In this document: positions 6,009 through 25,886 of the stretch, one piece after another
Position numbering within the stretch: position 1 is the stretch's first letter
Layout: every line of letters begins with the position of its first letter
From: an uncultured Actinomycetes bacterium
GTDB taxonomy: Bacteria > Actinomycetota > Actinomycetes > S36-B12
Assembly: GCA_964559285.1 (NCBI GenBank)
Contig: CAZLHZ010000003.1
Span: forward strand, 1-25,886
Direction: 5' to 3'
DNA: 25,886 bases
Notes under the pieces: generated by a model
Told to the model about the DNA's origin: nothing
Databases searched by the model: none
Seen by the model: only the letters and a program-made list of their open reading frames with translations
Program-made: the position numbers and the translations under genes

Positions 6009-8005
6009 GCGTCTGCTCCCGATGTGCGAGCCACGCGGAGGATCTCCCCCTCGGGGTGGGCGTGGTAGCCCTGGTCCACGTAGGTCGTCGAGGTGGGTTC
6101 GGTCACGAGCAGCGGCCCCTGCCCGCCCGTGGGTGCGAGGTCGAGGCGGTCAACCACGGCGAAGTCGAGTCGCCGCTGCGCGCGGCAGCTCCACACGTGA
6201 CGAGTGGTGCCGGGCGCTGTGCCATCTGGGGTGCTCGGGTGCTGCGCGGGAGCATGGTCATCGGCGGAACGCAATGCCACCCAATGCTGGACCCGCACGG
6301 TCACGATCTCCGCAGCCGAGTCGAGCTGGTGGCCGTAGGCGGCTCGATAGGCGCTGAGGAAGCACTGGTACGTCGACTCCACATCACCGGCAAGCGAAAC
6401 GGTCAACGTGTGCTCCTGCCCTGAGAACCGAAGGTCGACGAAGACTGCGGTGTCGCCCCCATCTCCCGGGATGCCAGCAAGCAGCTGCGACGCCGCTTCG
6501 CCTACCCGGGCAAAGCCGGTGTCATCGAGCGGCGCGATGAGCGTGCGCGACGCACTCCGCACGAGGTCCGACTCCATGAGTCCGACAGCGGAGAAGTTCC
6601 CAGCTGTCGGCGGGACCACAATGTCCGGGATGTCGAGCTCATCGGCGATGAGCGTGGCGAAGAGCGGACCTGCACCACCGAAAGCCACGAGTGTGCTGGC
6701 GGTGGGGTCGACTCCCCGATCGACGGTGATGCCGCGGATCGCCTCCGCCATGTGCGAGGCCGCGATCCGCATGATCCCGTCGGCTGCAGCGTCGAGGGAC
6801 GGCAGGCCAGCCGCTGCGGCGACGTCGTCAACGGCATCTCGCGCGCGCTGTGCACTCAGGATCACGCCGGGTTGCAGTTCCCCCTCCGTCAGCAGCCCGA
6901 GCACAAGCGCCGAGTCGGTGACCGTGGCGATCGAGCCGCCACGCTGGTAGCAGGCGGGCCCCGGGATGGCACCGGCACTGCGCGGGCCGACGTGCAGGCC
7001 ACCGGCATCGACGATGGCGAGGGACCCGCCGCCGGCACCGACGGATCGGACGTCGACCCAGGGACACTGCAGGGGCAGACCGGCGACGGTGCCCTCGTAG
7101 AGCAGGGGCAGCTCACCATCGATCACGAGCGCGGTGTCGAAGCTGGTCCCGCCGACATCTGCGATGAGGGCCGAGGAGATGCGGTGACGGCGGGCTAGGC
7201 CCGCGGTGGCGGTGGCCCCGGCAACCGGTCCGGACAGGATCGTCTCGACGGGTCGCTCCAGTGCCTGGTCCACGGTGAGTGCACCACCACCGGATCGCGT
7301 GATGAGCAATTCACCGGTGAAGCCGCGAAGCCTCAGCTCACGATCAAGGGTCTGCAGGTAGGGGCCCATGCGTCGACGGACGAAGGCGTCGACGATGGTC
7401 GTCGTCGTCCGCTCATACTCGCGATACTCACCGGAGACACGATGAGACAGTGAGATGTCTCCGGTGAACCCGCTCTCGCGCAGGATCTCCTCGATCTGCA
7501 GCTCATGGCTCGGATTCGCGTAGGAGTGCAGGAGCACGACAGCCAGGGTGCTGATCCCTGCTGACGTGAATACTGCTGCGGCCGATCGGACATCATCGGC
7601 TTCCAGCGGCTGGTGAACGTGCCCGTTCGCCATCACTCTCTCGCGCACCTCGAGGCGATGGCGTCGAGGCACCATGGGCGCAGGTGGGTGCCACGTCAGC
7701 GCATAGGGGTCGTCCCGGTCACCACGACGGATCTCGAGGACATCGCGGAAGCCGGCAGTGGTGATGAGCCCGACCGGCGAGTCGCTGCCCTCACGCTCGA
7801 TGAGCGCATTGAGTCCGACCGTCGTGCCGTGAATGAGATGGCGACATCGGGGGAGGTCCTCCGGTCCCACGACGGCATCGACCGCATGGAGGACACCTTG
7901 CTCGGGATGAGCCGGCGTCGTGGGCACTTTGGCCACGCGGACTCGCCCATCGAGCCTCATCACCAGGTCAGTGAACGTGCCACCGACGTCGACCCCGATC
8001 GCCAC
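6005..8005 (-). CDS. Hydantoinase A/oxoprolinase-family ATP-binding subunit (HyuA-like)
   Basis: IGVDVGGTFTD, HGTTVGLNALIER, EYREYERT, SGPVAG, DVGGTSFD, VGAGGGS, GPRSAGAIPGPACY, AFGGAGPL. ATGA overlap with the B subunit. Confidence 0.95.
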   Translation of the reverse strand: MAIGVDVGGTFTDLVMRLDGRVRVAKVPTTPAHPEQGVLHAVDAVVGPEDLPRCRHLIHGTTVGLNALIEREGSDSPVGLITTAGFRDVLEIRRGDRDDPYALTWHPPAPMVPRRHRLEVRERVMANGHVHQPLEADDVRSAAAVFTSAGISTLAVVLLHSYANPSHELQIEEILRESGFTGDISLSHRVSGEYREYERTTTTIVDAFVRRRMGPYLQTLDRELRLRGFTGELLITRSGGGALTVDQALERPVETILSGPVAGATATAGLARRHRISSALIADVGGTSFDTALVIDGELPLLYEGTVAGLPLQCPWVDVRSVGAGGGSLAIVDAGGLHVGPRSAGAIPGPACYQRGGSIATVTDSALVLGLLTEGELQPGVILSAQRARDAVDDVAAAAGLPSLDAAADGIMRIAASHMAEAIRGITVDRGVDPTASTLVAFGGAGPLFATLIADELDIPDIVVPPTAGNFSAVGLMESDLVRSASRTLIAPLDDTGFARVGEAASQLLAGIPGDGGDTAVFVDLRFSGQEHTLTVSLAGDVESTYQCFLSAYRAAYGHQLDSAAEIVTVRVQHWVALRSADDHAPAQHPSTPDGTAPGTTRHVWSCRAQRRLDFAVVDRLDLAPTGGQGPLLVTEPTSTTYVDQGYHAHPEGEILRVARTSGADA

Positions 8006-8027
8006 GTCCGTAGTCTAGGGTTCAGCC
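8006..8027. promoter_or_regulatory. Two overlapping divergent -10 elements (leaderless-type promoters)
   Basis: Plus strand: TAGGGT 8016-8021, 6 nt before GTG 8028. Minus strand: TAGACT (8017-8012), 6 nt before GTG 8005. No RBS on either side. Confidence 0.65.
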
Positions 8028-9521
8028 GTGGCCACGATCGGCGACCTCTGTGCCGTGGATGCGCATGCTGAAGGTCTGCATGATCTCCTGCCTCTCTCCG
8101 AGGTCGGTGTCCATCGGGGGCGAACGCTCACGTCGGTGGGTCTCGTGGAGTCCCCCGAAGCGCTCGCTGATGCTCCCGCAGACTCCGTGCAGGTGATGGC
8201 GACCGAGGTGGCACGCTCGCTGCAGGCCTATCAGGTGGATGTCGCCGTGCGCACGGCCGCGGCACGTTCGGTTGCTGTCCTCGTGATGCCGGGTGTGACT
8301 GAGCTGCCCGCCACCGCGACCCACATGGCGGCACGCAGCGGCATTGTTCTGGCCACCTGTCGGCCCGGTGTTCCACTGGCACATCTCGTTGTGAGCATCG
8401 ATCAGCGACTGCGCGGAGATGCTTCAGTGACAGTCGGTCGTGCCCTATCGACTCTGGTGCGCCTCCGTGAGATCGAAACTGATGACTCGCTGACGGTCGA
8501 GGACCTGGTGATCGCGGCTTCACGCGAGCTGGGTATCACCGTGCAGACCGTGACCGCTGGCGATGAAGGTGGTGAGCCGGTCGAGATCGATGGAGCTGTC
8601 ATTGAGCGACTCGTCGCTGATGAAGACGACGATGCGGTGCGACTTGTCCTGCCGACCCTCGCGGCCATCCTGTCTCGGCGACGTCGACATGAGCGGGACC
8701 TGCGTCTGGCTCCCGACCAGGCTCGGGGTGAGGTTGTCGTGCAGATCCTGCTGGCGGGAGATCTCGAGGTCACGACGCGCATCGCTGATCGCGCTCGATC
8801 TCTTGGCGTCGATATCGACGCCCGCCATGTCGTCATCGCCCTATCGACCGATGACGATCCAGCTCGAGGTGACAGCACGATGTCGGTGGGTGCGGAGCTC
8901 AGTCGTCGCTCCCATCGCGAGGACCTGGTGACCCGGATGCGCGAGGTTGCTCGCGGACGTGATGGCTGGGTGACAACAGCGCTGGAGGAGGACGTCCTCG
9001 TCATCCTCACCGGCGAGCTCTGCCCGATGGCCGATGATGTGGTCTCGGAGATGCTCCACATTGCCGGCCCGGACGTCTTCTGTGGAGTGGGGACCGAGCA
9101 GCCGGGGGCAACGGGTCTGCGCCTCTCCGCGTCGGAGGCGCGATCGGCTCTGGGCTCCGCACGCATGCGGGGGCGCGTGGGGGAGGCTGTGCGCTTCGAC
9201 GCCACGGGCGTACGCCGAGTCCTCGCGGATGTCCGAGCATCCTGGGTCGGTCGGCGGGTGCTCGATGACCTGCTGGCTCCGATCGACGCCCTCGATCAGG
9301 AGCGGTCCCGGGCGCTGTTGGCCACGCTGTCGGCGTACCTCGACAGCCAGGGGTCACTCAAGGCGGTGGCCGGACGACTCCATCTGCACCCCAACGCGGT
9401 CGCCTATCGGATCCGGCGGATCGAGGAGGTGCTCGCGATGGATCTCGCGGATCCGGATGTGCGCTTCGCCCTCCACCTCGCCTGCCGGGTCCGATTCCTC
9501 GACACCCCCTTGGGCTCGTGA
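8028..9521 (+). CDS. PucR/CdaR-family transcriptional regulator
   Basis: C-terminal LLATLSAYLDSQGSLKAVAGRLHLHPNAVAYRIRRIEEVL..DL is a PucR-type HTH. There is a central GGDEF-like region (CGVG...GLRLSASEA..AL). Confidence 0.92.
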   Translation: MATIGDLCAVDAHAEGLHDLLPLSEVGVHRGRTLTSVGLVESPEALADAPADSVQVMATEVARSLQAYQVDVAVRTAAARSVAVLVMPGVTELPATATHMAARSGIVLATCRPGVPLAHLVVSIDQRLRGDASVTVGRALSTLVRLREIETDDSLTVEDLVIAASRELGITVQTVTAGDEGGEPVEIDGAVIERLVADEDDDAVRLVLPTLAAILSRRRRHERDLRLAPDQARGEVVVQILLAGDLEVTTRIADRARSLGVDIDARHVVIALSTDDDPARGDSTMSVGAELSRRSHREDLVTRMREVARGRDGWVTTALEEDVLVILTGELCPMADDVVSEMLHIAGPDVFCGVGTEQPGATGLRLSASEARSALGSARMRGRVGEAVRFDATGVRRVLADVRASWVGRRVLDDLLAPIDALDQERSRALLATLSAYLDSQGSLKAVAGRLHLHPNAVAYRIRRIEEVLAMDLADPDVRFALHLACRVRFLDTPLGS

Positions 9522-9542
9522 CACAGGAACCTCCCAGATCCC

Positions 9543-9586
9543 TGTGCTGAGATCACATTGCTCCCTCGGCATCGCGCTGCCACGAT
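9543..9586 (+). promoter_or_regulatory. Candidate promoter of the DUF917 operon with an upstream palindrome
   Basis: TGTG-N7-CACA (9543-9557) abuts TTGCTC (9558-9563), then 17 nt, then CACGAT (9581-9586), then 7 nt to GTG 9594. Confidence 0.5.
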
Positions 9587-9593
9587 GTGCCCC

Positions 9594-10673
9594 GTGCGCG
9601 CCGTGACCCTCGAGGATCTCGATGACCTGGCCTTCGGTGCCGCCCTCTTCGGGACCGGGGGCGGTGGCAGTGTCGACGGCCAGTTGCTCAGCGCCAAGGC
9701 GGCCCTCGCTGAACTCGGACCCGTGCCGCTCGTCGACATCGACGACCTGCCCCCCGACAGCCTCGTCATGCCGCTGTCCGGTATCGGCGCACCGGTCGTC
9801 TCCCACGAGGTGCTGCGCAACGGACATGAGGCGGCCCTCATCCGGGCAGCTGTGGAGCGGGAGCTGGGTCGACCCGTCGCGGCCGTCATGTCCTCCGAGC
9901 TGGGCGGCGGCAACGGAGTGGAGCCGGTGATGTGGGCGGCCCGCCTCGGTCTGCCGATCGTCGACGGTGATGGCATGGGCCGGGCCTTCCCCGAGGTGCA
10001 GATGGTCACGTACTACGTGTGCGATATGCCGGTCACCCCGGTGTTCCTCTCCGACGTGCAGGGCAATGTGACGGTGGTCCATCCGGTGTCGGGGGAGTGG
10101 TCGGAGCCGATCGCCCGCTCCGTCACCGTCGCGATGGGCAGCAGTGCGCTCATGGCCGACTATGTCCTGCCTGCCGGAGTCGTCAAGGACGCGATCGTCC
10201 GGTCATCCATGAGTCGGGCGATCCGCGTCGGGCGTGCCGTGCGCACATCGACCTCGCCGCTGGCGGCCATTGAGGCCGAGCTCAATGCCACCCGGCTCAT
10301 CACCGGCAAGATTCGCGAGATCGAGCGGCGCACCGGCGGTGGGTTCGTGCGCGGGAGCGTCATCGTCGAAGGCTCCGGAGCCGATCGTGATCGACTGCTG
10401 AGGATTGAGATCCAGAACGAGAACCTCATCGCCCTCGAGGATGGCCAGCCACTCGCCGTCGTACCCGACCTCATCTCGGTCGTCGACTCCACGACGGGAC
10501 GCGCCATCGCGACAGAGGAGCTGAAGTACGGCCTGCGCGTCGCTGTCATGGCCTGGCCCTGCGATCCCATCTGGCGCACTCCGAAGGGACTGCGCACCGC
10601 CGGGCCTGAGGCGTTTGGGTACGACGTGACCTACGTCCCCATCGAGGAGGTGCGCCGTGGCCGCGCGTCGTGA
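9594..10673 (+). CDS. DUF917-family protein (thiohydantoin desulfurase-like)
   Basis: GAALFGTGGGG, IGAP, ELGGGNG, IVDGDGMGRAFPE, GGFVRG, QNENL, VPDLI are typical of DUF917. Start placed at GTG 9594 (MRAVTLEDLDDLA). Confidence 0.9.
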   Translation: MRAVTLEDLDDLAFGAALFGTGGGGSVDGQLLSAKAALAELGPVPLVDIDDLPPDSLVMPLSGIGAPVVSHEVLRNGHEAALIRAAVERELGRPVAAVMSSELGGGNGVEPVMWAARLGLPIVDGDGMGRAFPEVQMVTYYVCDMPVTPVFLSDVQGNVTVVHPVSGEWSEPIARSVTVAMGSSALMADYVLPAGVVKDAIVRSSMSRAIRVGRAVRTSTSPLAAIEAELNATRLITGKIREIERRTGGGFVRGSVIVEGSGADRDRLLRIEIQNENLIALEDGQPLAVVPDLISVVDSTTGRAIATEELKYGLRVAVMAWPCDPIWRTPKGLRTAGPEAFGYDVTYVPIEEVRRGRAS

Positions 10674-17454: not shown

Positions 17455-18903
17455 TCACAGGAATATCACCTCGAGGAACTCCGGCTGCGGGTGCGCATCA
17501 GGCAGGGTGGCACACACGTCGGCTATCGCCTGCGGGGCTGTTATCCCACGATGCCGTACGGAGTACAGCGCTGCCACCGATGGTGTGCGACTCTGTGCCT
17601 GGACACAGTGCAGCAGCACGCGTCGACCCTCAGCACGTAGGGCAGCGACCGCGTCAGCAGCCTCCTGCAGCACGAAGCTCGTGTGCTGATTGCCACCAGC
17701 CCGATCGATGAGCCACACCTCGACATGATCACGATTCATCACCGGCGCGGGTGCATGCTCACTCGCACCGAGTCGGCACAGCGACACAATGGCGTCGACA
17801 CACTCCGGCAGTGAGTGCAGTGCACCGACACCGCCGAGCACGACGTCCGGATCATGCGGATGCACGGCGAGGGCCGTGGTTCCGGCGTAAGGCGAATAAT
17901 CGAAGATCGCACCCGCTGGCCACCCCTGTGGATCGGGAGCACCTCGTGACACCGCCAGCATGCCGACCCTGATGAGATCGCGGGTCCGGTAGCCCGGCCA
18001 CCCGTGGAGGATCCGCTGCCAGCGCAGGGGAATCGCGGTGACACCCCAGCGGGCGCCGAGCAAAGCTCCGGCGATGGCGGCCACCGTGTCCGTGTCATCA
18101 CCGCATCGGACCGCTGCTTCCAGGGTGCGGGCGAGATCCTTGGGACCGTCCTGTGCAACGTGGTGAATGGCAGACCATGCGGCCTGAAGTGCTGCGACAA
18201 CCCAGCCGTTGTGGGGGATCTCGTACGGGAGCAGACGCTCTGCCTCGTCGAGTCTCTCGTGCCACAGTGCTGCTCGATGTGGCGGCAGGGCGTCGACGCC
18301 CAGTCGCACGCCGTCGAAGGTGCCGGTGAGCACCGCATGTGCGATCGCATCGCACCAGATCTGGCAGGCGTCCTCGGCGTCATCACCGGGGTGGGTCAGT
18401 GCGCTCATGGCTCGTGCCGCGTCGCGGCGTCCCTGCGGGTCGTGCAGGAAGGCGAGTGCCACGGGGGAGGTGCGCATGAGCGAGCCGTTGCCCGCACGGC
18501 CGCGCTGCGCGAAGATCTCGGCGGCAACATCAGCCGCTACCTCGGCACGCCGCTCCGCGCGGATGCGCGAGGACCTGAGCACGCTGGCCGTCTGGTTCCC
18601 GACATCTCGTGCCTCGCTCGCCCAGTCGACGAAGCGAGCCACAACGGCATCGCGCGCGGAGACCTCCCTCAGATCCACACCCTGCGCCGCAACATCCGCG
18701 ATGCACAGCGCCATCGAGGTGTCATCGGTCCATTCCCCGGGTGCCCATCCGAACGAACCGCCGCCGACCATCTTGACCGGCTCGCCGTTGATGCGGGCCG
18801 GCTGGAACTCATAGGGAGCACCCAGCGCGTCACCTGCAGCCTGTCCCACGAGAACACCAGCCGCACGATCGCGCTGTACCCCTGTCATCCGCTCCTCAGT
18901 CAT
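17455..18903 (-). CDS. ADP-ribosylglycohydrolase (ARH/DraG family) fused to a C-terminal tyrosine/dual-specificity phosphatase-like domain
   Basis: GDALGAPYE, WTDDTSM, GNGSLMR, GDDTDTVAAIAGALLGA are ARH Mg-site motifs. C-terminal LHCVQAQSRTP (17587-17610) is a CX5R motif. GAGGGG RBS before ATG 18903. Confidence 0.9.
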   Translation of the reverse strand: MTEERMTGVQRDRAAGVLVGQAAGDALGAPYEFQPARINGEPVKMVGGGSFGWAPGEWTDDTSMALCIADVAAQGVDLREVSARDAVVARFVDWASEARDVGNQTASVLRSSRIRAERRAEVAADVAAEIFAQRGRAGNGSLMRTSPVALAFLHDPQGRRDAARAMSALTHPGDDAEDACQIWCDAIAHAVLTGTFDGVRLGVDALPPHRAALWHERLDEAERLLPYEIPHNGWVVAALQAAWSAIHHVAQDGPKDLARTLEAAVRCGDDTDTVAAIAGALLGARWGVTAIPLRWQRILHGWPGYRTRDLIRVGMLAVSRGAPDPQGWPAGAIFDYSPYAGTTALAVHPHDPDVVLGGVGALHSLPECVDAIVSLCRLGASEHAPAPVMNRDHVEVWLIDRAGGNQHTSFVLQEAADAVAALRAEGRRVLLHCVQAQSRTPSVAALYSVRHRGITAPQAIADVCATLPDAHPQPEFLEVIFL

Positions 18904-18926
18904 GGCAACCCCCTCACATCGTGCTG

Positions 18927-19892
18927 CTACGTCCACACTGTCGCTGCGAGCACCTCCGGCACCAGAACCTCGGTCAGCAGCCGCACATCATCCTGATCGT
19001 CCCCGGCCCACCTCACGTCGTACGTTGATGACTCGACCTCACCGCCGATAGCGATGACCGTGCTCTTGCGCTCGCGGACCCACTGTGCCATCTGCGTCTG
19101 CCATCGGGAACCGGCGAAGACCATGAGTCGATAGTCAAGAGTCTTGGTGAGGTAGACATCGACATGACTCCAGTCGCCGCTCTCGCAGCCGACTGCCAGC
19201 CGGCGCGGTCCCTCGCGCAGCATGAGCGCTCCCTGCTGCGCACTCGAGAGGCGATGCGCCGGGGCGGCAAGGAAGGTGCCATCCGGGCCGAGGGCCAACT
19301 CGGCCACGCGCGGCAGCCACGCATCACGCCGAGCAAGGAGGTCCTCGGTCGCGTCCGCCGCCGCCCGGACCGTCGGCACCACCGGAGGGCACGACCCTGG
19401 TGCGAGCTTCTCCTGCAGTGACAGAAGCAGGCCGAGGGTGTGCTGGAAGGAGCGGCAGGCCACACCGCCGGCTTCCACACCGGCCATCATCGGCACCATC
19501 GCATCAACCATGGAGGTCAACTGCGATCCATCGACATTGACCATGCCGAGGATCGGACAGTGGCTGGCGTACCTCGTCAGCGCATCGAGTGTCTCCACGG
19601 ACCCACCGCTGGCGGAGACGGCAATGACCACCGTCGATGGTCGCGGTGCTGGAAGCAGGTCGCTGCTGGCAATCTCGGCGACCGCATCGATGCCTGCCGC
19701 ACGCAGCCGAGCAGCCGCGACAGAGTTCGCATAGTGCGATGAGCCCATCCCGAGCAGCACGATGTGTGACGAGGCCGAGAGCCCGACGCTGGCCGCATCC
19801 GCCCAGGCACGCCCGTCAGCAAGAACCTCCGCGAGTGCACGCAGCGCAGCAGGCTTGGCCTCAAGATCGGCCCGGAAGAGATCACGATCCAT
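18927..19892 (-). CDS. Stand-alone double-SIS sugar-phosphate isomerase/deaminase (GlmS isomerase-domain-like)
   Basis: LLGMGSSHYA, AVSASGGSVET, VACRSFQHT, QGALMLRE, GDWSH. GGAGG RBS before ATG 19892. The upstream part of the ORF-track ORF overlaps the kinase. Confidence 0.85.
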   Translation of the reverse strand: MDRDLFRADLEAKPAALRALAEVLADGRAWADAASVGLSASSHIVLLGMGSSHYANSVAAARLRAAGIDAVAEIASSDLLPAPRPSTVVIAVSASGGSVETLDALTRYASHCPILGMVNVDGSQLTSMVDAMVPMMAGVEAGGVACRSFQHTLGLLLSLQEKLAPGSCPPVVPTVRAAADATEDLLARRDAWLPRVAELALGPDGTFLAAPAHRLSSAQQGALMLREGPRRLAVGCESGDWSHVDVYLTKTLDYRLMVFAGSRWQTQMAQWVRERKSTVIAIGGEVESSTYDVRWAGDDQDDVRLLTEVLVPEVLAATVWT

Positions 19893-21240
19893 GGGCACCT
19901 CCACGGTGACGGGCGATGAGCGCTGGCAGTGCCGCGTCCGGCACGTAGTGCCAATGCGGAAGGTAGCGGCGCGCATAGGCATACTCGCGCAGCTCCTGCT
20001 GGACCTGAAAGGCTGCGGTGAGACGAGCATCGGCAAGCTCGAGCAGTTCGGCGCTCTCCAGTTCCGCGAGGTACGCCGCAAGCAGGACCGATTGACTCCG
20101 GTCAATCCACTGCAGCACAGTCGAGGTCTGATGGTTGTCGAGGTTCTCGGTGCGATGGAGCAGCACACGTCCGACATGGTCGAGCGAGGCCAGCATCGAG
20201 GCGACATCCCGCGCGGGTGGCTGCGGCAGATGCCGTTCCTGCGGTGTCAGCAGCGGTGAGCCATCGAAGTCGACAACGACATAGCGGTCTGGCTCACCTT
20301 GTGCTGAACGGGATCGAAGAACCTGCCCCACGTGATAGTCGCCGTGAATCGCCGTGAGTGTGGTGCCCGTCGCGGCCTCGATGGTCGGCAGGGCTCGGCG
20401 TACCTCAGCCACGAGATCGCCCTCGATCCCTGATGCCGCCAGATCATCCTCGAACCACCGCACCCACGTCCGAACATCGTCATCGGTGGCCGCACGTGTC
20501 CTGCCGCGCGCGAACGCGATGTGCATGCGTGCGGTGATCGCACCGAGTTCCAGCACGGGGGCCAATGCCTGCACCATTGACATCCTGCCCTGGGCCAGTG
20601 TCCGTACGTCATTGACCGCCCACTCCCACCCGTCCTCGGCATCCGGGATGAGGTCGATGATCGTGGCGATCCGGCACATCGTCGGCGGGTCCGCCCCATC
20701 GAGGACGAGGTCGATATCCGCCCAGGGGCGTGGGGCGTGTGTGAATCGCGCCAGGGTCAGCGTCGTCAGTCGCGCGAAGGCCACATCCGCGCCGTCGGCC
20801 GGATGAAGGGTCCACTTCACGAGCGCATGGCGACCGAGGGCGACGAGGTCGTTCGTCTGGTCTGCCTCGATGGCATGCTCATCGGACACCGTGCTCACCG
20901 GCCACCGCTCGGCGTCGTAGACGGTCGTGCGCAATCCGACCACGTGCAGATTCGTGCGCAGGCCCTCGATGAGGCTGCTGCTCGCACCCTCGCCAGCACG
21001 TGCTCGTCGCAGGCGACCGTTCTCGATGACCATGGGACCGGCGTACCGCTCACCACGCGCATCCTCCAGCAGCACGGCGTAGAACGGTCGATCACCCATG
21101 CGGGCCGCACCCAGCACCCGCAGGGGCAGCTCGATCCGCGCGGCCTCATCTCGACGACGCTCGGGAAGCAGCGCAGCGGGGTCAGCGAGGATGAGCGCGG
21201 TCGAGACCTGCTCGATCGCCTGAGTGTCGATGCTGGTCAC
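19882..21240 (-). CDS. Maltokinase-like (APH fold) sugar kinase, probably actinobacterial glucosamine-kinase family
   Basis: DQTN P-loop, LVKW lysine, HGDYHVGQVL, VVDFDG, RDVASMLASL, and C-terminal QELREYAYARRYLPHW. GTGA overlap with the GT stop. Confidence 0.8.
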   Translation of the reverse strand: MTSIDTQAIEQVSTALILADPAALLPERRRDEAARIELPLRVLGAARMGDRPFYAVLLEDARGERYAGPMVIENGRLRRARAGEGASSSLIEGLRTNLHVVGLRTTVYDAERWPVSTVSDEHAIEADQTNDLVALGRHALVKWTLHPADGADVAFARLTTLTLARFTHAPRPWADIDLVLDGADPPTMCRIATIIDLIPDAEDGWEWAVNDVRTLAQGRMSMVQALAPVLELGAITARMHIAFARGRTRAATDDDVRTWVRWFEDDLAASGIEGDLVAEVRRALPTIEAATGTTLTAIHGDYHVGQVLRSRSAQGEPDRYVVVDFDGSPLLTPQERHLPQPPARDVASMLASLDHVGRVLLHRTENLDNHQTSTVLQWIDRSQSVLLAAYLAELESAELLELADARLTAAFQVQQELREYAYARRYLPHWHYVPDAALPALIARHRGGAHGS

Positions 21241-22550
21241 GCGCGGGTGACGTGCTCCCGGCCGACGCGCTCGATGACGTCCGCGCCGGCGCGCAGTCCG
21301 TCGCGGGCTCGGATGGCCGTGCCAATAGCCGACATCCGTGCCCGAAGGCCGGTGTCAGCGAGCAGTCGCTCAACCGCGCCGGTCAACTCCTCGTCAGTGA
21401 ACGCGTAGGTCGCCAGGCGCACTCCGAAGCCGAGTTCATCCATCCGTTGGGCGTTGTCATACTGATCCCAGAACAGCGGCAGCAGGATCATCGGCTTGCC
21501 GAAGTGCATGGCCTCGGTCGTGGTGTTGTTGCCGCCGTGCGTGATGACAAGGTCGACGTGCGGGATGATCGTCGTCTGCGGGAGGAATTGGGCTCCCACC
21601 ATGTTGTCAGCGAGCTGCAGCTGATCGGCCTGTGGACCCATGCTCACGATGTAGCGATGAGGCGTGGTCGCGAGCACGGAGATGAGGCGACGCATCAGGT
21701 CGACGTCCGCACCGCCGAGCGAGCCGAGCGAGAGATAGACAAGAGCACTGCCTGCCGGTCGATTGGCCACCGACTCCGGAATCTCGTAGCGCGCATCTGT
21801 CTCGCGCACACTCGAGTCCATGCGATGCCAGGTGGTATTGAGCGGACGTTGATCGGTGTAGTCGGCCTCAGTGGGATAGACGTAGAGGTTGGCAACTGGT
21901 GACTCATGGATGAAGTCAAGGTCGGCGAGTGCTGGAGCGCCCTGCTGGATCACCCACTCGTTGTACGCCGACCACATGGCCCGATGTGTCCGGTCATACT
22001 CCGCCCGGAAGGCCGCCCATTCGGAACGATCGGCACTCGGCAGGCCACCGAACACGGGCGGAACATCAGCTCCGCGCACCTCCAGCGGATTGCACGACAT
22101 GATGCGCACGAACGGCGCCCCGGAGGTGATGAGGGCGGGGAAGCACACGACGTTGTCCTCGACGATGACGTCGGGGCGCTGGCGCGCGATGATCTCCTTG
22201 AGCTGAGGCTCGCAGTACATCGCCCCGTCGATGAGTGCCTGCCAGGTGGGCTGCACGAACGTGGACAGCTGCTCGACTGTCGGCTTGCGGAACTCCGGCG
22301 ACGTGTCGCGGATGAAGTCGGTCCAGAACTGGCCGGCGTCCTGCTCGGGCGCGTCCGGGGGCGGGGGCGGGGCGAGGTCAACGAGGTCCTCGACAAAGCC
22401 CAGGGGCTCGAGACGTCCGGCCCATGATGCCTCGGCAGCGAACACGACTCGATGGCCCCGGTCGAGGAGGACCTTGCCGATGCCGATGCACTGGTTGGTC
22501 GGTCCGTAGGCCGACTCGGGCATGAACATGATCGTGAGCGGGCGGGTCAT
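21237..22550 (-). CDS. GT1 (MGT/OleD-like) glycosyltransferase
   Basis: RGHRVVFA, LVYLSLGS, FLPQTTIIPHVDLVITHGGNNTTTEAMHFGKPMILLPLFWDQYDNA (UDP-sugar-binding signature). ATGA overlap with the TetR stop. Confidence 0.92.
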   Translation of the reverse strand: MTRPLTIMFMPESAYGPTNQCIGIGKVLLDRGHRVVFAAEASWAGRLEPLGFVEDLVDLAPPPPPDAPEQDAGQFWTDFIRDTSPEFRKPTVEQLSTFVQPTWQALIDGAMYCEPQLKEIIARQRPDVIVEDNVVCFPALITSGAPFVRIMSCNPLEVRGADVPPVFGGLPSADRSEWAAFRAEYDRTHRAMWSAYNEWVIQQGAPALADLDFIHESPVANLYVYPTEADYTDQRPLNTTWHRMDSSVRETDARYEIPESVANRPAGSALVYLSLGSLGGADVDLMRRLISVLATTPHRYIVSMGPQADQLQLADNMVGAQFLPQTTIIPHVDLVITHGGNNTTTEAMHFGKPMILLPLFWDQYDNAQRMDELGFGVRLATYAFTDEELTGAVERLLADTGLRARMSAIGTAIRARDGLRAGADVIERVGREHVTRA

Positions 22551-23152
22551 GTGAGCTCCGTGGGTAGGGGATGGTTCGTGGCCAAGCGGGCGTAGCCAAG
22601 GATGAGCGAGATGGAGGCATCACGGTCGATGACCGGGTGCCCCGCCATGATGCGGTAGCCGTAGGCATCCTCAAGGGCGACGAGGTTTCGCGCGATCGGC
22701 AGTGACTCACCGGCGAGGGTGAAGACTCCCTGGGCCGCTCCGGTCTCGAGGATCATCTGGTAGAGCGCGACCTGCCGGTCGAACAGTGAGGTGAGGAGCA
22801 CGGCGTAGACCGTGTTGCGAGCCGCCTCACCGCCGAGGGCGCAGAGGAGGCGCACCTCCTCATCGTCGGCATCGACGGGCAGGCCCGACATGATCGTGAT
22901 GACGAGACGGCGGGCTGGGTCGGCGATTCCCTCGATTGCCTTGAGCCGGCCGTCGTAGAAGCGCTCCATGCCGGCCCGGTTGGCATCGACGAGGAGATCC
23001 TGCAGATCGGGGTAGTGATAGAGGATCGCGCCCGAGGTCAGACCCGCTTCCTCGGCCACCTGGTGCAGGCGCACCCCTGGACCGTGCTCGGCCATCGCCC
23101 GCTGGGCGGCAGCGATGAGGTGGGAGCGGCGTCCACCCTTCACCCGAGGCAC
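22547..23152 (-). CDS. TetR/AcrR-family regulator (BetI-like C-terminus)
   Basis: RRSHLIAAAQRAMAEHG...LHQVAEEAGLTSGAILYHYPDLQDLL is a TetR HTH. Start placed at GTG 23152 (MPRVK...). GTG 23173 is the alternative. Confidence 0.9.
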   Translation of the reverse strand: MPRVKGGRRSHLIAAAQRAMAEHGPGVRLHQVAEEAGLTSGAILYHYPDLQDLLVDANRAGMERFYDGRLKAIEGIADPARRLVITIMSGLPVDADDEEVRLLCALGGEAARNTVYAVLLTSLFDRQVALYQMILETGAAQGVFTLAGESLPIARNLVALEDAYGYRIMAGHPVIDRDASISLILGYARLATNHPLPTELT

Positions 23153-23159
23153 GGGCGGC

Positions 23160-23165
23160 AGCCTA
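23160..23165 (-). promoter_or_regulatory. -10 element for a leaderless tetR operon transcript
   Basis: TAGGCT on the minus strand, 7 nt upstream of GTG 23152. No RBS. Confidence 0.5.
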
Positions 23166-23248
23166 GCGGCCACCCGGATCGTGCAGGGGGTTTCCTGAAG
23201 GGAGCATCAAGTTGTTGCCGAAATGTGCCATCCCGTGTGGAGGAATCG

Positions 23249-23276
23249 CTTGCATCCCCTTCCACGCGTGTGCAAG
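23249..23276. promoter_or_regulatory. Inverted repeat in the divergent tetR/ABC region (possible operator)
   Basis: CTTGCA-N16-TGCAAG, with an internal CACGCGTG palindrome. Confidence 0.25.
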
Positions 23277-23322
23277 TGTCGCCCGTCGCCGGAACCCCCG
23301 GCCCACTTCAAGGGAGTCATTG

Positions 23323-24435
23323 ATGAGCACTCTCACCCGTTCCCTCCGTCGAGGCAGCCTCGCCGCCGGGATCGCCGTCACCGCCGCGGTGGCGCTGGCT
23401 GCCTGCGGCAGCTCGGGCGGCTCGGCGAAGGCCAGCTTGGATCCCAAGGCTGACCTCACCAAGCAGACCCTCACCATCTCCAACTGGGCGGGCTACTACC
23501 CCGAGGATCTCGCCGACACCGTCAAGGGAGCCTTCGGAACCCCGGTGACGATCACGAACCACGCCACCAACGAGGAGATCATGGCCAAGCTCACCGCCGG
23601 TGGTGACTCGGGCATTGACGTGGCCTTCGTGTCAGGGCAGTACGCGCAGGCACTCAACGCGGCTGGGCTGCTCGAGCCCATCCACGCCGACCTCATTCCG
23701 AACCTGTCGAACCTCTACCCCGAGGCGACGACGCTGCCGTACGACGTGGGCAACACCTACTCCGTTCCCTACGCCTGGGGCACCACGGGAATCTGCTACC
23801 GCAGCGATCTGGTGAGCGGAACTCCGGACAGCTGGAACGCGGTTCTCACGCCGGCTGCGGACACCAAGGGCAAGATCACCGCCCTGTCAACAGAGCGGTG
23901 GCTGGCCCTGCCCGCCCTGAAGGCCCTCGGCTACTCGATCAACACGACGAACGCAGACGAGCTTGCCAAGGCGAAGGAACTCCTCATCGCTGAGAAGCCC
24001 GGCCTTCTGGCGTACGACGACACCACGTTCTACTCGCGGCTGGTGTCGGGTGAGGCGTCCATGGCGGTGGCGTGGGACGGCTGGTGCAACTACGCCATCG
24101 CCGAGGATCCGAACGTGAAGTTCATCGTTCCCGAGGAGGGCAGTGACCTCTGGACGGACACGATGGTGATCCTCAAGACCTCCAAGAACAAGGAGGCCGC
24201 CCACGCGTTCATCAACTTCATCCTCGCCCCGGGGAACCACGGCTGGGTCGCGGAGAACATCCTCTACAAGGTCCCCAACAAGGCGGCCATGGACAAGGTG
24301 GGTGCGGCACTCGCGGAGAGCTTCCCCAACATGGGCATGACCCCCGCGGACCTGCTCAAGCAGGAAGCCATCATCGACCTCGGTGATAAGAGTTCGGAAT
24401 ACACCAAGCTCGCCACCGAAGTCACGTCCAGCTAA
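23323..24435 (+). CDS. PotD/PotF-family ABC substrate-binding lipoprotein
   Basis: AAGGGAG RBS, ATG 23323, lipobox LAAC. NWAGY, TNEEIMAKL, YSVPYAWGTTGI, LGYSINTT, PEEGSDLWTDTMVI, AHAFINFIL align to PotD. Confidence 0.92.
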   Translation: MSTLTRSLRRGSLAAGIAVTAAVALAACGSSGGSAKASLDPKADLTKQTLTISNWAGYYPEDLADTVKGAFGTPVTITNHATNEEIMAKLTAGGDSGIDVAFVSGQYAQALNAAGLLEPIHADLIPNLSNLYPEATTLPYDVGNTYSVPYAWGTTGICYRSDLVSGTPDSWNAVLTPAADTKGKITALSTERWLALPALKALGYSINTTNADELAKAKELLIAEKPGLLAYDDTTFYSRLVSGEASMAVAWDGWCNYAIAEDPNVKFIVPEEGSDLWTDTMVILKTSKNKEAAHAFINFILAPGNHGWVAENILYKVPNKAAMDKVGAALAESFPNMGMTPADLLKQEAIIDLGDKSSEYTKLATEVTSS

Positions 24436-24444
24436 AGGCGATTG

Positions 24445-25338
24445 ATGGCATTCGCCCGGACCCGAGGGCGCGACGCGGCAACGCGTCGCGCCCTCGGCGC
24501 GCGCACGGTCTTCCTCGGACCTGGCCTGCTCTACGTCACGGCCTTCATGACCGTGCCGCTCCTGCTCGTCCTCTCCTACGCCTTCCTCACCCGCGGCCGA
24601 TTCGGCGGCGTGACATTGCCGCTCACGCTGGCGAATTTCCAGCGCGTCCTTGATCCGGTCTATCTCTCGGTCATCGGCAACTCGCTCCTCATTGCCGGCA
24701 TCACGACGATTCTGGCGCTCCTGCTGGGCTACCCGGTGGCCTACGCCATCACCCGGCTCCCGACGAAGTGGCGAACCATCGCCCTCATCCTCGTCGTGCT
24801 GCCGTTCTGGTCGAACTTCCTCATCCGCACCTACGCCTGGATCGTGCTGCTCAATTCCGAGGGTCCCCTCAACGGCTTGCTCATGGCGATCGGGATCGTC
24901 GATGAGCCGATTGGCTTCCTTTACAACCGTGGAGCCGTCATTGTCGGCCTGCTCTATGCCTACCTTCCCCTCATGATCCTGCCCCTCTACGCGTCACTGG
25001 AGCGCATGGACCACTCGCTCATTGAGGCAGCGACGAACCTCGGAGCAACGAGAAGGCGGGCCTTCCTTGATGTCACGCTCCCGCTGACACTTCCAGCCGC
25101 AATGGTCGGCTCGATCTTCGTCTTCGTCCCCAGCCTCGGAAACTTCGTCGTGCCCGAACTTCTCGGCGGCGGCAAGACCGTGATGATCGGCAACCTCATC
25201 CGTGACCAGTTCCTCAAGGCGCGGGACTGGCCGTTCGGGTCGGTGCTCGCACTGCTCATGGTCGTCTTCCTCATCACACTGTTCGCAGCCCAGGCGGCAA
25301 TCTCACGGCGCATCAACGGGGGGAGGAGTCGTGCGTAG
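24445..25338 (+). CDS. PotB-type ABC permease
   Basis: LLGYPVAY, LPFWSNFLIRTYAW, YAYLPLMILPLYASLERMD.SLIEAATNLGA, LLGGGK, DWPFGS. Confidence 0.95.
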   Translation: MAFARTRGRDAATRRALGARTVFLGPGLLYVTAFMTVPLLLVLSYAFLTRGRFGGVTLPLTLANFQRVLDPVYLSVIGNSLLIAGITTILALLLGYPVAYAITRLPTKWRTIALILVVLPFWSNFLIRTYAWIVLLNSEGPLNGLLMAIGIVDEPIGFLYNRGAVIVGLLYAYLPLMILPLYASLERMDHSLIEAATNLGATRRRAFLDVTLPLTLPAAMVGSIFVFVPSLGNFVVPELLGGGKTVMIGNLIRDQFLKARDWPFGSVLALLMVVFLITLFAAQAAISRRINGGRSRA

Positions 25339-25886
25339 GCTCGGCTGGCTGCGGCTTCCCCTCATTGTGGTGTTCTGCTTCCTCTACATCCCCATCGCCG
25401 TCGTCGTGGCAATGTCCTTCAACGCCAGCAAGCTGCCCTTCTCCTGGAGCGGCTTCTCCCTCCAGTGGTACGCCTCACTGGCGGCCAACGAGGAGATCCG
25501 ACAGGGTTTCGTCAACACGATGATCGTGGCGATCGGCGCCACGATCATCGCGACGATCCTCGGCACACTCGTGGCCATCGGACTTGCGCGATACACCCGA
25601 TCAGCACTCCTCGAAGCCTATGCCCTCACCCCCGCTATCGTCCCCGATCTTGCTCTGGCCATCGGGCTGCTCGCCATGTTCAGTGGGATCGGGATGACAC
25701 TCGGCCTGCACTCGGTGCTGCTGGCGCACATCGTCTTCGGCATGGCATTCGTGACTGCCGTCGTGACCACGCGAATGACACAGCTGGATCCGAGCCTCGA
25801 CGAGGCCAGTCGCGATCTCGGAGCCTCGGCATCCACGACCTTCTTCCGGATCACGGTGCCTTCGCTGACCCCTGCAATCGCCGCCG
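25331..25886 (+). CDS. PotC-type ABC permease (partial, runs off the right edge)
   Basis: GGAGGAG RBS and GTG 25331. Translates as MRRLGWLRLPLIVVFCFLYIPIAVVVAMSFNASKLPFSWSGFSLQWY, later LDPSLDEASRDLGAS (EAA loop). Not in the ORF track. Confidence 0.93.
   Translation, partial: MRRLGWLRLPLIVVFCFLYIPIAVVVAMSFNASKLPFSWSGFSLQWYASLAANEEIRQGFVNTMIVAIGATIIATILGTLVAIGLARYTRSALLEAYALTPAIVPDLALAIGLLAMFSGIGMTLGLHSVLLAHIVFGMAFVTAVVTTRMTQLDPSLDEASRDLGASASTTFFRITVPSLTPAIAA

Follow-up and report, generated by a model that had tools for sequence, protein, structure and literature searches.

The window studied here, 25,886 nucleotides of an uncultured Actinomycetes bacterium of the S36-B12 lineage (contig CAZLHZ010000003.1 of assembly GCA_964559285.1, positions 1 to 25,886), carries an importer-coupled, putatively TetR-controlled form of an operon that has been published but is functionally unexplained, the triad of a GT1 glycosyltransferase, a glucosamine kinase (GlcNK) and a SIS-domain protein. 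The triad diverges from the genes of a PotD-type ATP-binding cassette (ABC) importer; the two arms travel together in evolution and, in relatives, have a putative TetR-type palindromic operator in common. The best reading of positions 18,927-25,886 is that they form one regulon with two arms, tetR-GT1-glcNK-SIS on one side and potD-potB-potC-potA, followed by genes for a DAO-family oxidoreductase and an aldehyde dehydrogenase (ALDH), on the other. The operon boundary should be redrawn so as to leave out the fusion gene downstream of SIS, here called ARH-PTP, and to take in PotA, the amine oxidoreductase and ALDH. The features in question are as follows.

17455-18903, minus strand: ARH-PTP, a fusion of an ADP-ribosylglycohydrolase with a CX5R dual-specificity-phosphatase-like domain
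18927-19892, minus strand: SIS, a double-SIS protein of the GlmS-isomerase / NagB-II type
19882-21240, minus strand: kinase of the GlcNK family, with a maltokinase / eukaryotic protein kinase (ePK)-like fold
21237-22550, minus strand: GT1 UDP-glycosyltransferase (Pfam UDPGT / EryCIII-like_C; MGT)
22547-23173, minus strand: TetR-family repressor that heads the enzyme operon (start at 23173, 23152 or 23143)
23174-23322, no strand: divergent control region between TetR and PotD, with a degenerate operator-like copy only
23323-24435, plus strand: PotD-subtype lipoprotein binding protein (ATG at 23323; lipobox LAAC)
24445-25338, plus strand: PotB-like permease (NCBIfam PotB at 259.6 bits, under the cut-off of 348)
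25331-25886, plus strand, cut by the window end: PotC-like permease (NCBIfam PotC at 154.9 bits for the partial protein)

Coupling of the importer to the triad

The core of this finding is a triad that has already been described. Manso et al. (2019, mBio, PMC6520443) characterized a maltokinase paralogue as a glucosamine kinase (SjGlcNK and MsGlcNK; Km for glucosamine, 8 mM), defined its fingerprint as D-x-H together with Q-x2-RE-x2-YA-x3-LP-x-W, and found it tightly associated with a putative AgaS-type SIS isomerase and a GT1, its physiological role being left unexplained. According to the same study, the neighbors of the triad in Streptacidiphilus jiangxiensis include genes for a UDP-sugar pyrophosphorylase and a phosphoglucomutase, and predicted biosynthetic clusters enclose the triad in several species (PMC6520443). 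A search for follow-up literature on GlcNK led only to the 2019 paper itself and the corresponding preprint. The glycosyltransferase/SIS neighborhood of actinobacterial glucosamine kinases that the original prediction had mentioned is correct and corresponds to this triad, and its proposal of an uncharacterised amino-sugar-type operon is supported as well.

The window proteins were used as tblastn queries against 18 related triad loci, 17 of them at the level of the order; a search for related loci with the kinase alone led to one locus only, that of Nonomuraea. Presence and absence were surveyed in 24 genomes of the family, in 41 relatives and, across the phylum, in 400 evenly sampled genomes, for which only 4 candidates per genome were scored and kinases of 250 bits or more were counted as GlcNK type.

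The three triad genes are adjacent and co-oriented in all 17 order-level loci, in 5 loci of the phylum sample and in the window. Each of the 13 family loci that were fetched combines GT1-GlcNK-SIS with PotDBC(A), and 12 of them carry the TetR orthologue as well, the remaining one (L035) having a distant BetI-type TetR. At the level of whole genomes, GT1 and the PotD subtype occur in exactly the same 14 of the 24 family genomes and are jointly absent from the other 10, a split that runs inside two genera; GlcNK is present in 13, and the fourteenth locus is cut at a contig end.

The same pattern extends to the phylum sample, where the PotD subtype was detected in 5 of the 400 genomes, all 5 of which carry GT1, with PotD divergent from GT1 and 99-213 bp away from it in 4. 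In two classes, every genome in which the PotD subtype was found has GT1 as well. GlcNK-type kinases were present in 8 of the 400 genomes, invariably with GT1 (8/8) and at most 17 kb from it in 7. A GT1 orthologue (50-72% identical) is far from confined to these genomes, being encoded in 43 of the 400 and lacking both kinase and importer in about 30. Since neither GlcNK nor the PotD subtype was found without GT1, while GT1 occurs alone, GT1 is the hub of the system. It is also its most conserved part, with about 70% identity across classes versus about 40% for the kinase; GT1 orthologues are 50-77% identical across the phylum, and 108 of 437 positions are at least 96% invariant. In Nonomuraea antri, TetR, GT1, ALDH, PotDBCA, GlcNK and SIS have all been kept, although their order has changed.

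The functional link that had been suspected between the PotD importer and the triad is thus borne out by both co-occurrence and adjacency. The wider expectation, that GT1, SIS, PotD and ARH-PTP would recur together, held for the first three only, as the tblastn search found an ARH-PTP homologue in none of the 18 related loci.

Several loci show further neighbors of GT1. In the family genome with the BetI-type TetR, that regulator adjoins PotD, the gene order differs, and the GT1-SIS-GlcNK operon is headed by a saccharopine-dehydrogenase-like gene (L035, 5929-7098); the saccharopine-dehydrogenase-like family includes carboxyspermidine dehydrogenase. At L078, GT1 lies beside a PuuR-like helix-turn-helix (HTH)-cupin regulator and a second kind of Pot ABC transporter, and at L081 and L086 beside a flavin amine oxidase, an arrangement that is confined to one genus and counts as one event. 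In two other families, a GlnR-type response regulator is encoded within 6 kb of GT1 (L053, L058, L070, L082, L084 and L085), and at L053 and L084 a glutamine synthetase gene stands between this regulator and GT1.

A putative operator common to both arms

The repressor matches Pfam TetR_N at 26.5 bits, with the HTH present. Orthologues of 60-79% identity occupy the corresponding place in Nonomuraea and in 12 of the family loci, and the solved relatives of the repressor are unnamed structural-genomics entries only. In the spacer between TetR and PotD, a palindrome resembling CTGAAT-N4-ATTCAG occurs with at most 3 mismatches in 12 of 12 family loci, as compared with 5.5% of shuffled sequences, and with at most 2 mismatches in 10 of the 12, a level that 0.4% of shuffled spacers reach. 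About 340 kb of related loci contain its TGAAT-N4-ATTCA core (10 specified bases) at 15 places, 14 of which lie upstream of TetR, PotD, GT1 or GlcNK. The Nonomuraea locus has the core at the promoter between TetR and GT1-ALDH and again at the promoter between PotDBCA and GlcNK-SIS, while at L027 it is found upstream of a Pot operon 5 kb from TetR. This distribution in relatives provides good evidence for one regulon governed by the putative operator. A different imperfect palindrome, GCATCAAGTTGTTGC, is located at about 23204-23218 of the window.

The importer and the putative amine-catabolism arm

The binding protein matches E. coli PotD (1POT) at 1.9e-36 and the NCBIfam PotD model at 135 bits, as against a cut-off of 582. 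The original prediction had called it atypical, and this is confirmed at the canonical polyamine-contact positions, five of which are replaced (T35A, E36G, Y85Q, D168T and E171W, in E. coli numbering), while W34, Y37, S83, W229, W255, D257 and Y293 are retained. These changes are conserved in 17 orthologues, as are the subtype motifs T-E/D-R-W and AWDGW, which bring new acids at the equivalents of 169 and 230. The suggestion that only one amine site remains is not supported, given that conserved acids have been gained beside the lost ones (T-E-R-W, AWDGW). On these residues, the protein represents a distinct PotD subtype, predicted to bind an amine that is probably other than spermidine.

In relatives, the importer operon runs from PotD-PotB-PotC-PotA to a DAO-family FAD oxidoreductase and then to an aldehyde dehydrogenase. 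The latter scores 647 bits with the NCBIfam aminobutyraldehyde-dehydrogenase model, above its cut-off of 615, whereas the nearest model for the oxidoreductase is 'aminophosphonate oxidoreductase' at 228 bits, and the search for solved relatives of this enzyme gave none at E≤1e-8. In composition, the operon matches SCO5666-5671 of Streptomyces coelicolor, a predicted polyamine operon (reviewed in PMC9397018), and so by analogy has a polyamine-catabolism layout. The claim that the locus does not look like ordinary polyamine uptake was accordingly too strong, as the importer is followed in relatives by genes for an amine oxidoreductase of the FAD type and for an aminobutyraldehyde dehydrogenase, both of which are also encoded on another contig, C138, of the same genome. 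Within the related loci examined, no PuuA/GlnA3 synthetase or hydrolase was found.

The genome holds additional systems of this type. A paralogous PotA-PotB-PotC-DAO operon, 36-58% identical to the one studied here, lies on contig C160 (1660-5423), and further Pot-type systems are present on C1 and C83.

Predicted functions of the triad enzymes

The kinase scores 271.5 bits with the NCBIfam GlcN_kinase model (NF041273), under the equivalog cut-off of 550, which in the phylum sample was passed by two Mycobacteriaceae-type genomes only. Its fingerprint is complete (HGDYHVGQV and QELREYAYARRYLPHW, together with DYH, DFD, DQTN and LVKW) and is largely retained across 24 orthologues, so that by sequence the kinase is a member of the glucosamine-kinase family. 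When it was used as a query at E≤1e-20, one match per family genome was obtained, with no sign of a separate canonical maltokinase paralogue, in contrast to the species in which GlcNK was discovered.

The SIS protein has a weak Pfam match and resembles the C-terminal region of NCBIfam glmS (5.5e-15). Its AlphaFold model (predicted local distance difference test score, 93.6) gave Foldseek template-modeling (TM) scores of 0.82-0.84 with stand-alone GlmS-like proteins as well as with the isomerase domain of GlmS, and of 0.75-0.76 with NagB-II deaminases. The phosphate loop S-A-S-G-G-S and the equivalents of E488 (Glu) and H504 (His) are kept in 23-24 of 24 orthologues; a Met occupies the K485 equivalent, and no C-terminal K603 equivalent was seen in the alignment. 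From these residues and the model, the protein is predicted to convert an aminosugar-6-phosphate to a ketose-6-phosphate plus an amine, or to catalyze the reverse reaction. A search for classical NagB gave one PF01182 match per genome, and these matches may be 6-phosphogluconolactonases.

GT1 scores 131 bits with NCBIfam MGT (cut-off, 260), and its best matches in the PDB are the spider-mite enzymes UGT203A2 (2.1e-71) and UGT202A2 (2e-61). Its G-P-T-N motif aligns with the catalytic G-H-V-N of both, placing a Pro where the catalytic His would be. The motif is invariant, with Pro in 56 of 56 orthologues, which bears out the earlier observation that the catalytic His is missing; the donor motif HGGNNT...WDQYDNA is intact. 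As a side observation, the two mite enzymes, which retain the catalytic His, match the window GT1 far better than OleD or YjiC does. Mite UGTs are considered to have come from bacteria, and the clade of the window GT1 may be close to their donor lineage.

Organization of the locus and contig context

Gene layout was derived from a six-frame list of open reading frames and from the junction sequences, and domains were assigned with Pfam and NCBIfam, both of which agree with the family calls made earlier. All five linked minus-strand genes diverging from the Pot importer were confirmed, along with their four junctions: the TetR stop and GT1 start share ATGA (22547-22550); the GT1 stop and kinase start share GTGA (21237-21240); the kinase stop (19882) and the SIS ATG (19892) overlap by 11 bp, with GGAGG upstream; and the SIS stop (18927) is separated from the ARH-PTP ATG (18903) by a 23-bp gap containing GAGGGGG. 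A terminator scan of the window found no terminator-like site within the minus-strand operon. On the other strand, PotC starts at a GTG at 25331 that is preceded by GGGGGGAGGAG.

The window stops within PotC because the contig nearly ends there: it makes up nearly the whole of contig C3 (26,653 nt) of a metagenome-assembled genome that is 60% complete. On the full contig, PotC spans 25313-26104 and is followed by the first 177 codons of PotA (26121-26651; 74% identical to a relative's). Contig C138 carries DAO (65% identity) and ALDH (71% identity), a pair that we infer to be the continuation of the C3 importer operon. The sequence is present in metagenome runs from river, estuary, freshwater and drinking water; these runs, together with the names given to nearly identical proteins, indicate an uncultured actinobacterium of the Nanopelagicales type.

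A model for the regulon and its alternatives

Considering these data, we propose that the locus is a TetR-controlled regulon for amine uptake and amino-sugar metabolism, organized around an amine-directed GT1 and serving nitrogen scavenging, a model that, judged from genes and their context, we regard as evenly poised between right and wrong. In this model, TetR would repress both promoters, releasing them once the amine that is imported, or one of its derivatives, has built up. The PotD-subtype ABC importer would take up a polyamine-like amine, from which the FAD oxidoreductase and ALDH would generate an omega-amino acid and ammonia. The His-less GT1 would glycosylate an acceptor drawn from the amine pool, either a nitrogen nucleophile or some other one for which no base is required, and GlcNK and the GlmS-like SIS would convert glucosamine or an N-substituted relative to the 6-phosphate and then to fructose-6-phosphate plus an amine or ammonia.

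Several points weigh against this model. Triads without the importer are found in Mycobacteriaceae and in four sister-family genomes, and GT1 occurs without importer or kinase in most lineages, so that the link must be facultative. The co-occurrence counts exceed the number of independent events, as relatives are not independent and linked genes can be lost by single deletions. The window spacer itself holds only a degenerate copy of the palindrome near 23195-23212, with 3-4 mismatches; this lineage may have lost the operator, or the site may have diverged. We know of no precedent for a Leloir glycosyltransferase in a catabolic regulon, and the literature searched yielded no glycosylated polyamine of natural origin. 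Finally, relatives with genomes of 2-4 Mb (G005, G020, G014, G023 and G001) encode 5-8 glutamine synthetase (GS)-like paralogues each, so that the oxidoreductase could be supplied by the usual gamma-glutamyl route, in which GT1 has no part.

The GS-like paralogues suggest that the family has extensive gamma-glutamylation capacity for amines. The idea that GT1 replaces PuuA for want of gamma-glutamyl-polyamine synthetases, which had been considered, is weakened by the same paralogues.

The alternative that survives best, although we consider it unlikely, is that a polyamine operon and a glucosamine-salvage operon are independent neighbors in a nitrogen-scavenging island, held side by side by common regulation or simple synteny, with GT1 unrelated to either, for example as a detoxifying enzyme. 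Each arm does have a self-sufficient conventional reading, GT1 is alone in most lineages, the GlnR and GS genes near it in several loci suggest a general nitrogen neighborhood, and many GS-like paralogues are at hand in relatives for the gamma-glutamyl route. Independence is nevertheless hard to reconcile with a PotD subtype that is divergent from GT1 in 4 of 5 distant genomes and never without it in two classes, with a Nonomuraea locus that has been reordered yet keeps all the parts and the same putative operator at both promoters, or with the recurrence of non-homologous amine enzymes beside GT1.

A biosynthetic role, in line with the context reported by Manso et al., strikes us as rather improbable. 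Here, GlcNK and SIS would supply glucosamine-6-phosphate for a UDP-amino-sugar, made by way of housekeeping mutase and uridylyltransferase, that GT1 would load onto an aglycone, and the importer would provide the acceptor or nitrogen, the product being a glucosamine-containing metabolite. The intact donor site of GT1 and its position as hub for both kinase and importer fit such a pathway, as do the mutase and pyrophosphorylase genes of S. jiangxiensis and the predicted clusters elsewhere (PMC6520443). In none of the Nanopelagicales-type loci examined, however, is there a mutase, pyrophosphorylase, polyketide synthase, nonribosomal peptide synthetase or exporter; the genomes are 2-4 Mb in size and aquatic, the layout of repressor, importer, oxidase and dehydrogenase is that of a catabolic operon, and SIS would duplicate GlmS.

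A more specific scheme, to which we give slightly less credence than to the biosynthetic one, is polyamine catabolism by means of a sugar tag, put on one amino group by GT1 as a mask and taken off later by the kinase and SIS. GT1 would N-glycosylate one amino group of an imported di- or polyamine, in place of gamma-glutamylation (PuuA) or acetylation, and the FAD oxidoreductase and aminobutyraldehyde dehydrogenase would oxidize the free end. The GlcNK-type kinase would then phosphorylate the sugar-amine adduct, which the GlmS-like SIS would split as a deglycase (Amadori/Heyns chemistry), releasing hexose-6-phosphate and an omega-amino acid. If true, this scheme would provide a physiological role for the whole Manso triad and a third way of masking polyamines.

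The amine-uptake and amino-sugar regulon that we favor bears on the physiological role of the actinobacterial glucosamine-kinase triad, a question that dates from 2019, and on a very large GT1 family with no known substrate, which is common among Actinobacteria of freshwater and estuaries and of which public data contain no fewer than 7,975 homologues at E≤1e-50. Coupling of the triad to the importer and to amine oxidation turns an 'unknown sugar operon' into a testable hypothesis of polyamine nitrogen scavenging with a short list of candidate substrates. Dropping the ARH-phosphatase from the system removes a misleading component.

ARH-PTP as a passenger of the operon

The original prediction had read all five enzyme-side genes as an amino-sugar-conjugate system in which the ARH-phosphatase serves repair or deconjugation and PotD imports glucosamine or an N-glycosylated amine, a reading that we now think very improbable: ARH-PTP does follow SIS after 23 bp, with its own ribosome-binding site and no terminator between them, PotD lacks E36, D168 and E171 and has gained Trp residues against which a sugar ring could stack, and a route from glucosamine to glucosamine-6-phosphate and fructose-6-phosphate suits the kinase and SIS, but glucosamine would not need a co-operonic amine oxidoreductase and aminobutyraldehyde dehydrogenase, and ARH-PTP behaves as a passenger.

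The protein matches Pfam ADP_ribosyl_GH at 4.7e-56, whereas its match to DSPc (3.1e-06) is weak and under the cut-off; an HCX5R motif is present. Beyond its absence from all 18 related triad loci, homologues were found in 10 of the 41 relatives, four of which have neither GT1 nor the kinase. We therefore rejected ARH-PTP as a conserved fifth gene. The gene after SIS is usually convergent and varies from locus to locus (helicase, LacI, exo/endonuclease-phosphatase, XRE or GGDEF).

At nine ARH-PTP loci, the sole recurrent neighbors are an NrtR-like Nudix regulator and an ARPP-1 protein (Pfam PF20208, 'ARG and Rhodanese-Phosphatase-superfamily-associated protein'), and clustering of all open reading frames revealed no neighbor common to ARH-PTP loci and the triad. 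In relative G014, which has both, the ARH-PTP homologue lies 18 kb from the triad, beside NrtR and ARPP-1. Its absence from triad loci, taken together with these neighbors, argues that ARH-PTP is part of a system of the NAD/ADP-ribose type. It has come to lie behind SIS in this lineage and is probably co-transcribed with the operon there.

Locus L090 provides an example of the ARH-PTP locus with NrtR-like and ARPP-1 neighbors (6133-9346), and contig C35 of the genome studied here carries an NrtR and ARPP-1 pair without the fusion gene (7878-9626). The ARH-PTP/NrtR/ARPP-1 system appears to be split in this genome. In G040, an open frame of about 1,400 codons has ARH-PTP as its C-terminal part.

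Comparison with known systems

ARH-PTP thus has its counterpart in the ARG / rhodanese-phosphatase / ARPP-1 systems (PF20208), as relatives encode it with ARPP-1 and NrtR-like neighbors; the fusion gene of the window differs in being separated from those partners and sitting behind SIS.

The kinase and SIS follow a logic in common with FrlD/FrlB and GfrE/F deglycation and with NagK/NagB-II, wherein a kinase 6-phosphorylates an amino or N-substituted sugar that a double-SIS protein then splits or isomerizes. The fold of the window kinase is maltokinase/ePK-like, however, rather than PfkB or ROK, and the SIS protein shares only about 20% identity with GlmS or NagB-II, its likeness to FrlB being one of reaction logic only.

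With MGT/OleD and the mite UGT202/203 enzymes (PDB 2IYA, 6PNT and 7LVY), the window GT1 has in common the GT-B GT1 fold and an intact UDP-sugar motif, and the mite UGTs align over its full length (E 2e-71). It differs from all of these in having a Pro for the His of the His-Asp dyad, and it does not stand in an antibiotic-resistance context.

The importer arm has the parts of SCO5666-SCO5671 and of E. coli Puu/Pot, namely a PotD/F-type binding protein, two permeases, an ATPase, a DAO oxidoreductase and a gamma-aminobutyraldehyde-type dehydrogenase. In contrast to these systems, its binding protein has five canonical spermidine-contact residues replaced, and the operon lacks a gamma-glutamyl-polyamine synthetase and hydrolase and is always paired with a His-less GT1.

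The closest counterpart is the Manso triad, in which the same three families are coupled as here: a kinase with DxH and Q-x2-RE-x2-YA-x3-LP-x-W, an AgaS/GlmS-type SIS and an MGT-type GT1. The window triad departs from it in a kinase score of 271 bits, below the cut-off of 550, and in a context without phosphoglucomutase, UDP-sugar pyrophosphorylase or secondary-metabolite genes; instead, through a link that is not mentioned in PMC6520443, it is led by a TetR repressor and tied to a PotD-subtype importer and amine-oxidation genes.

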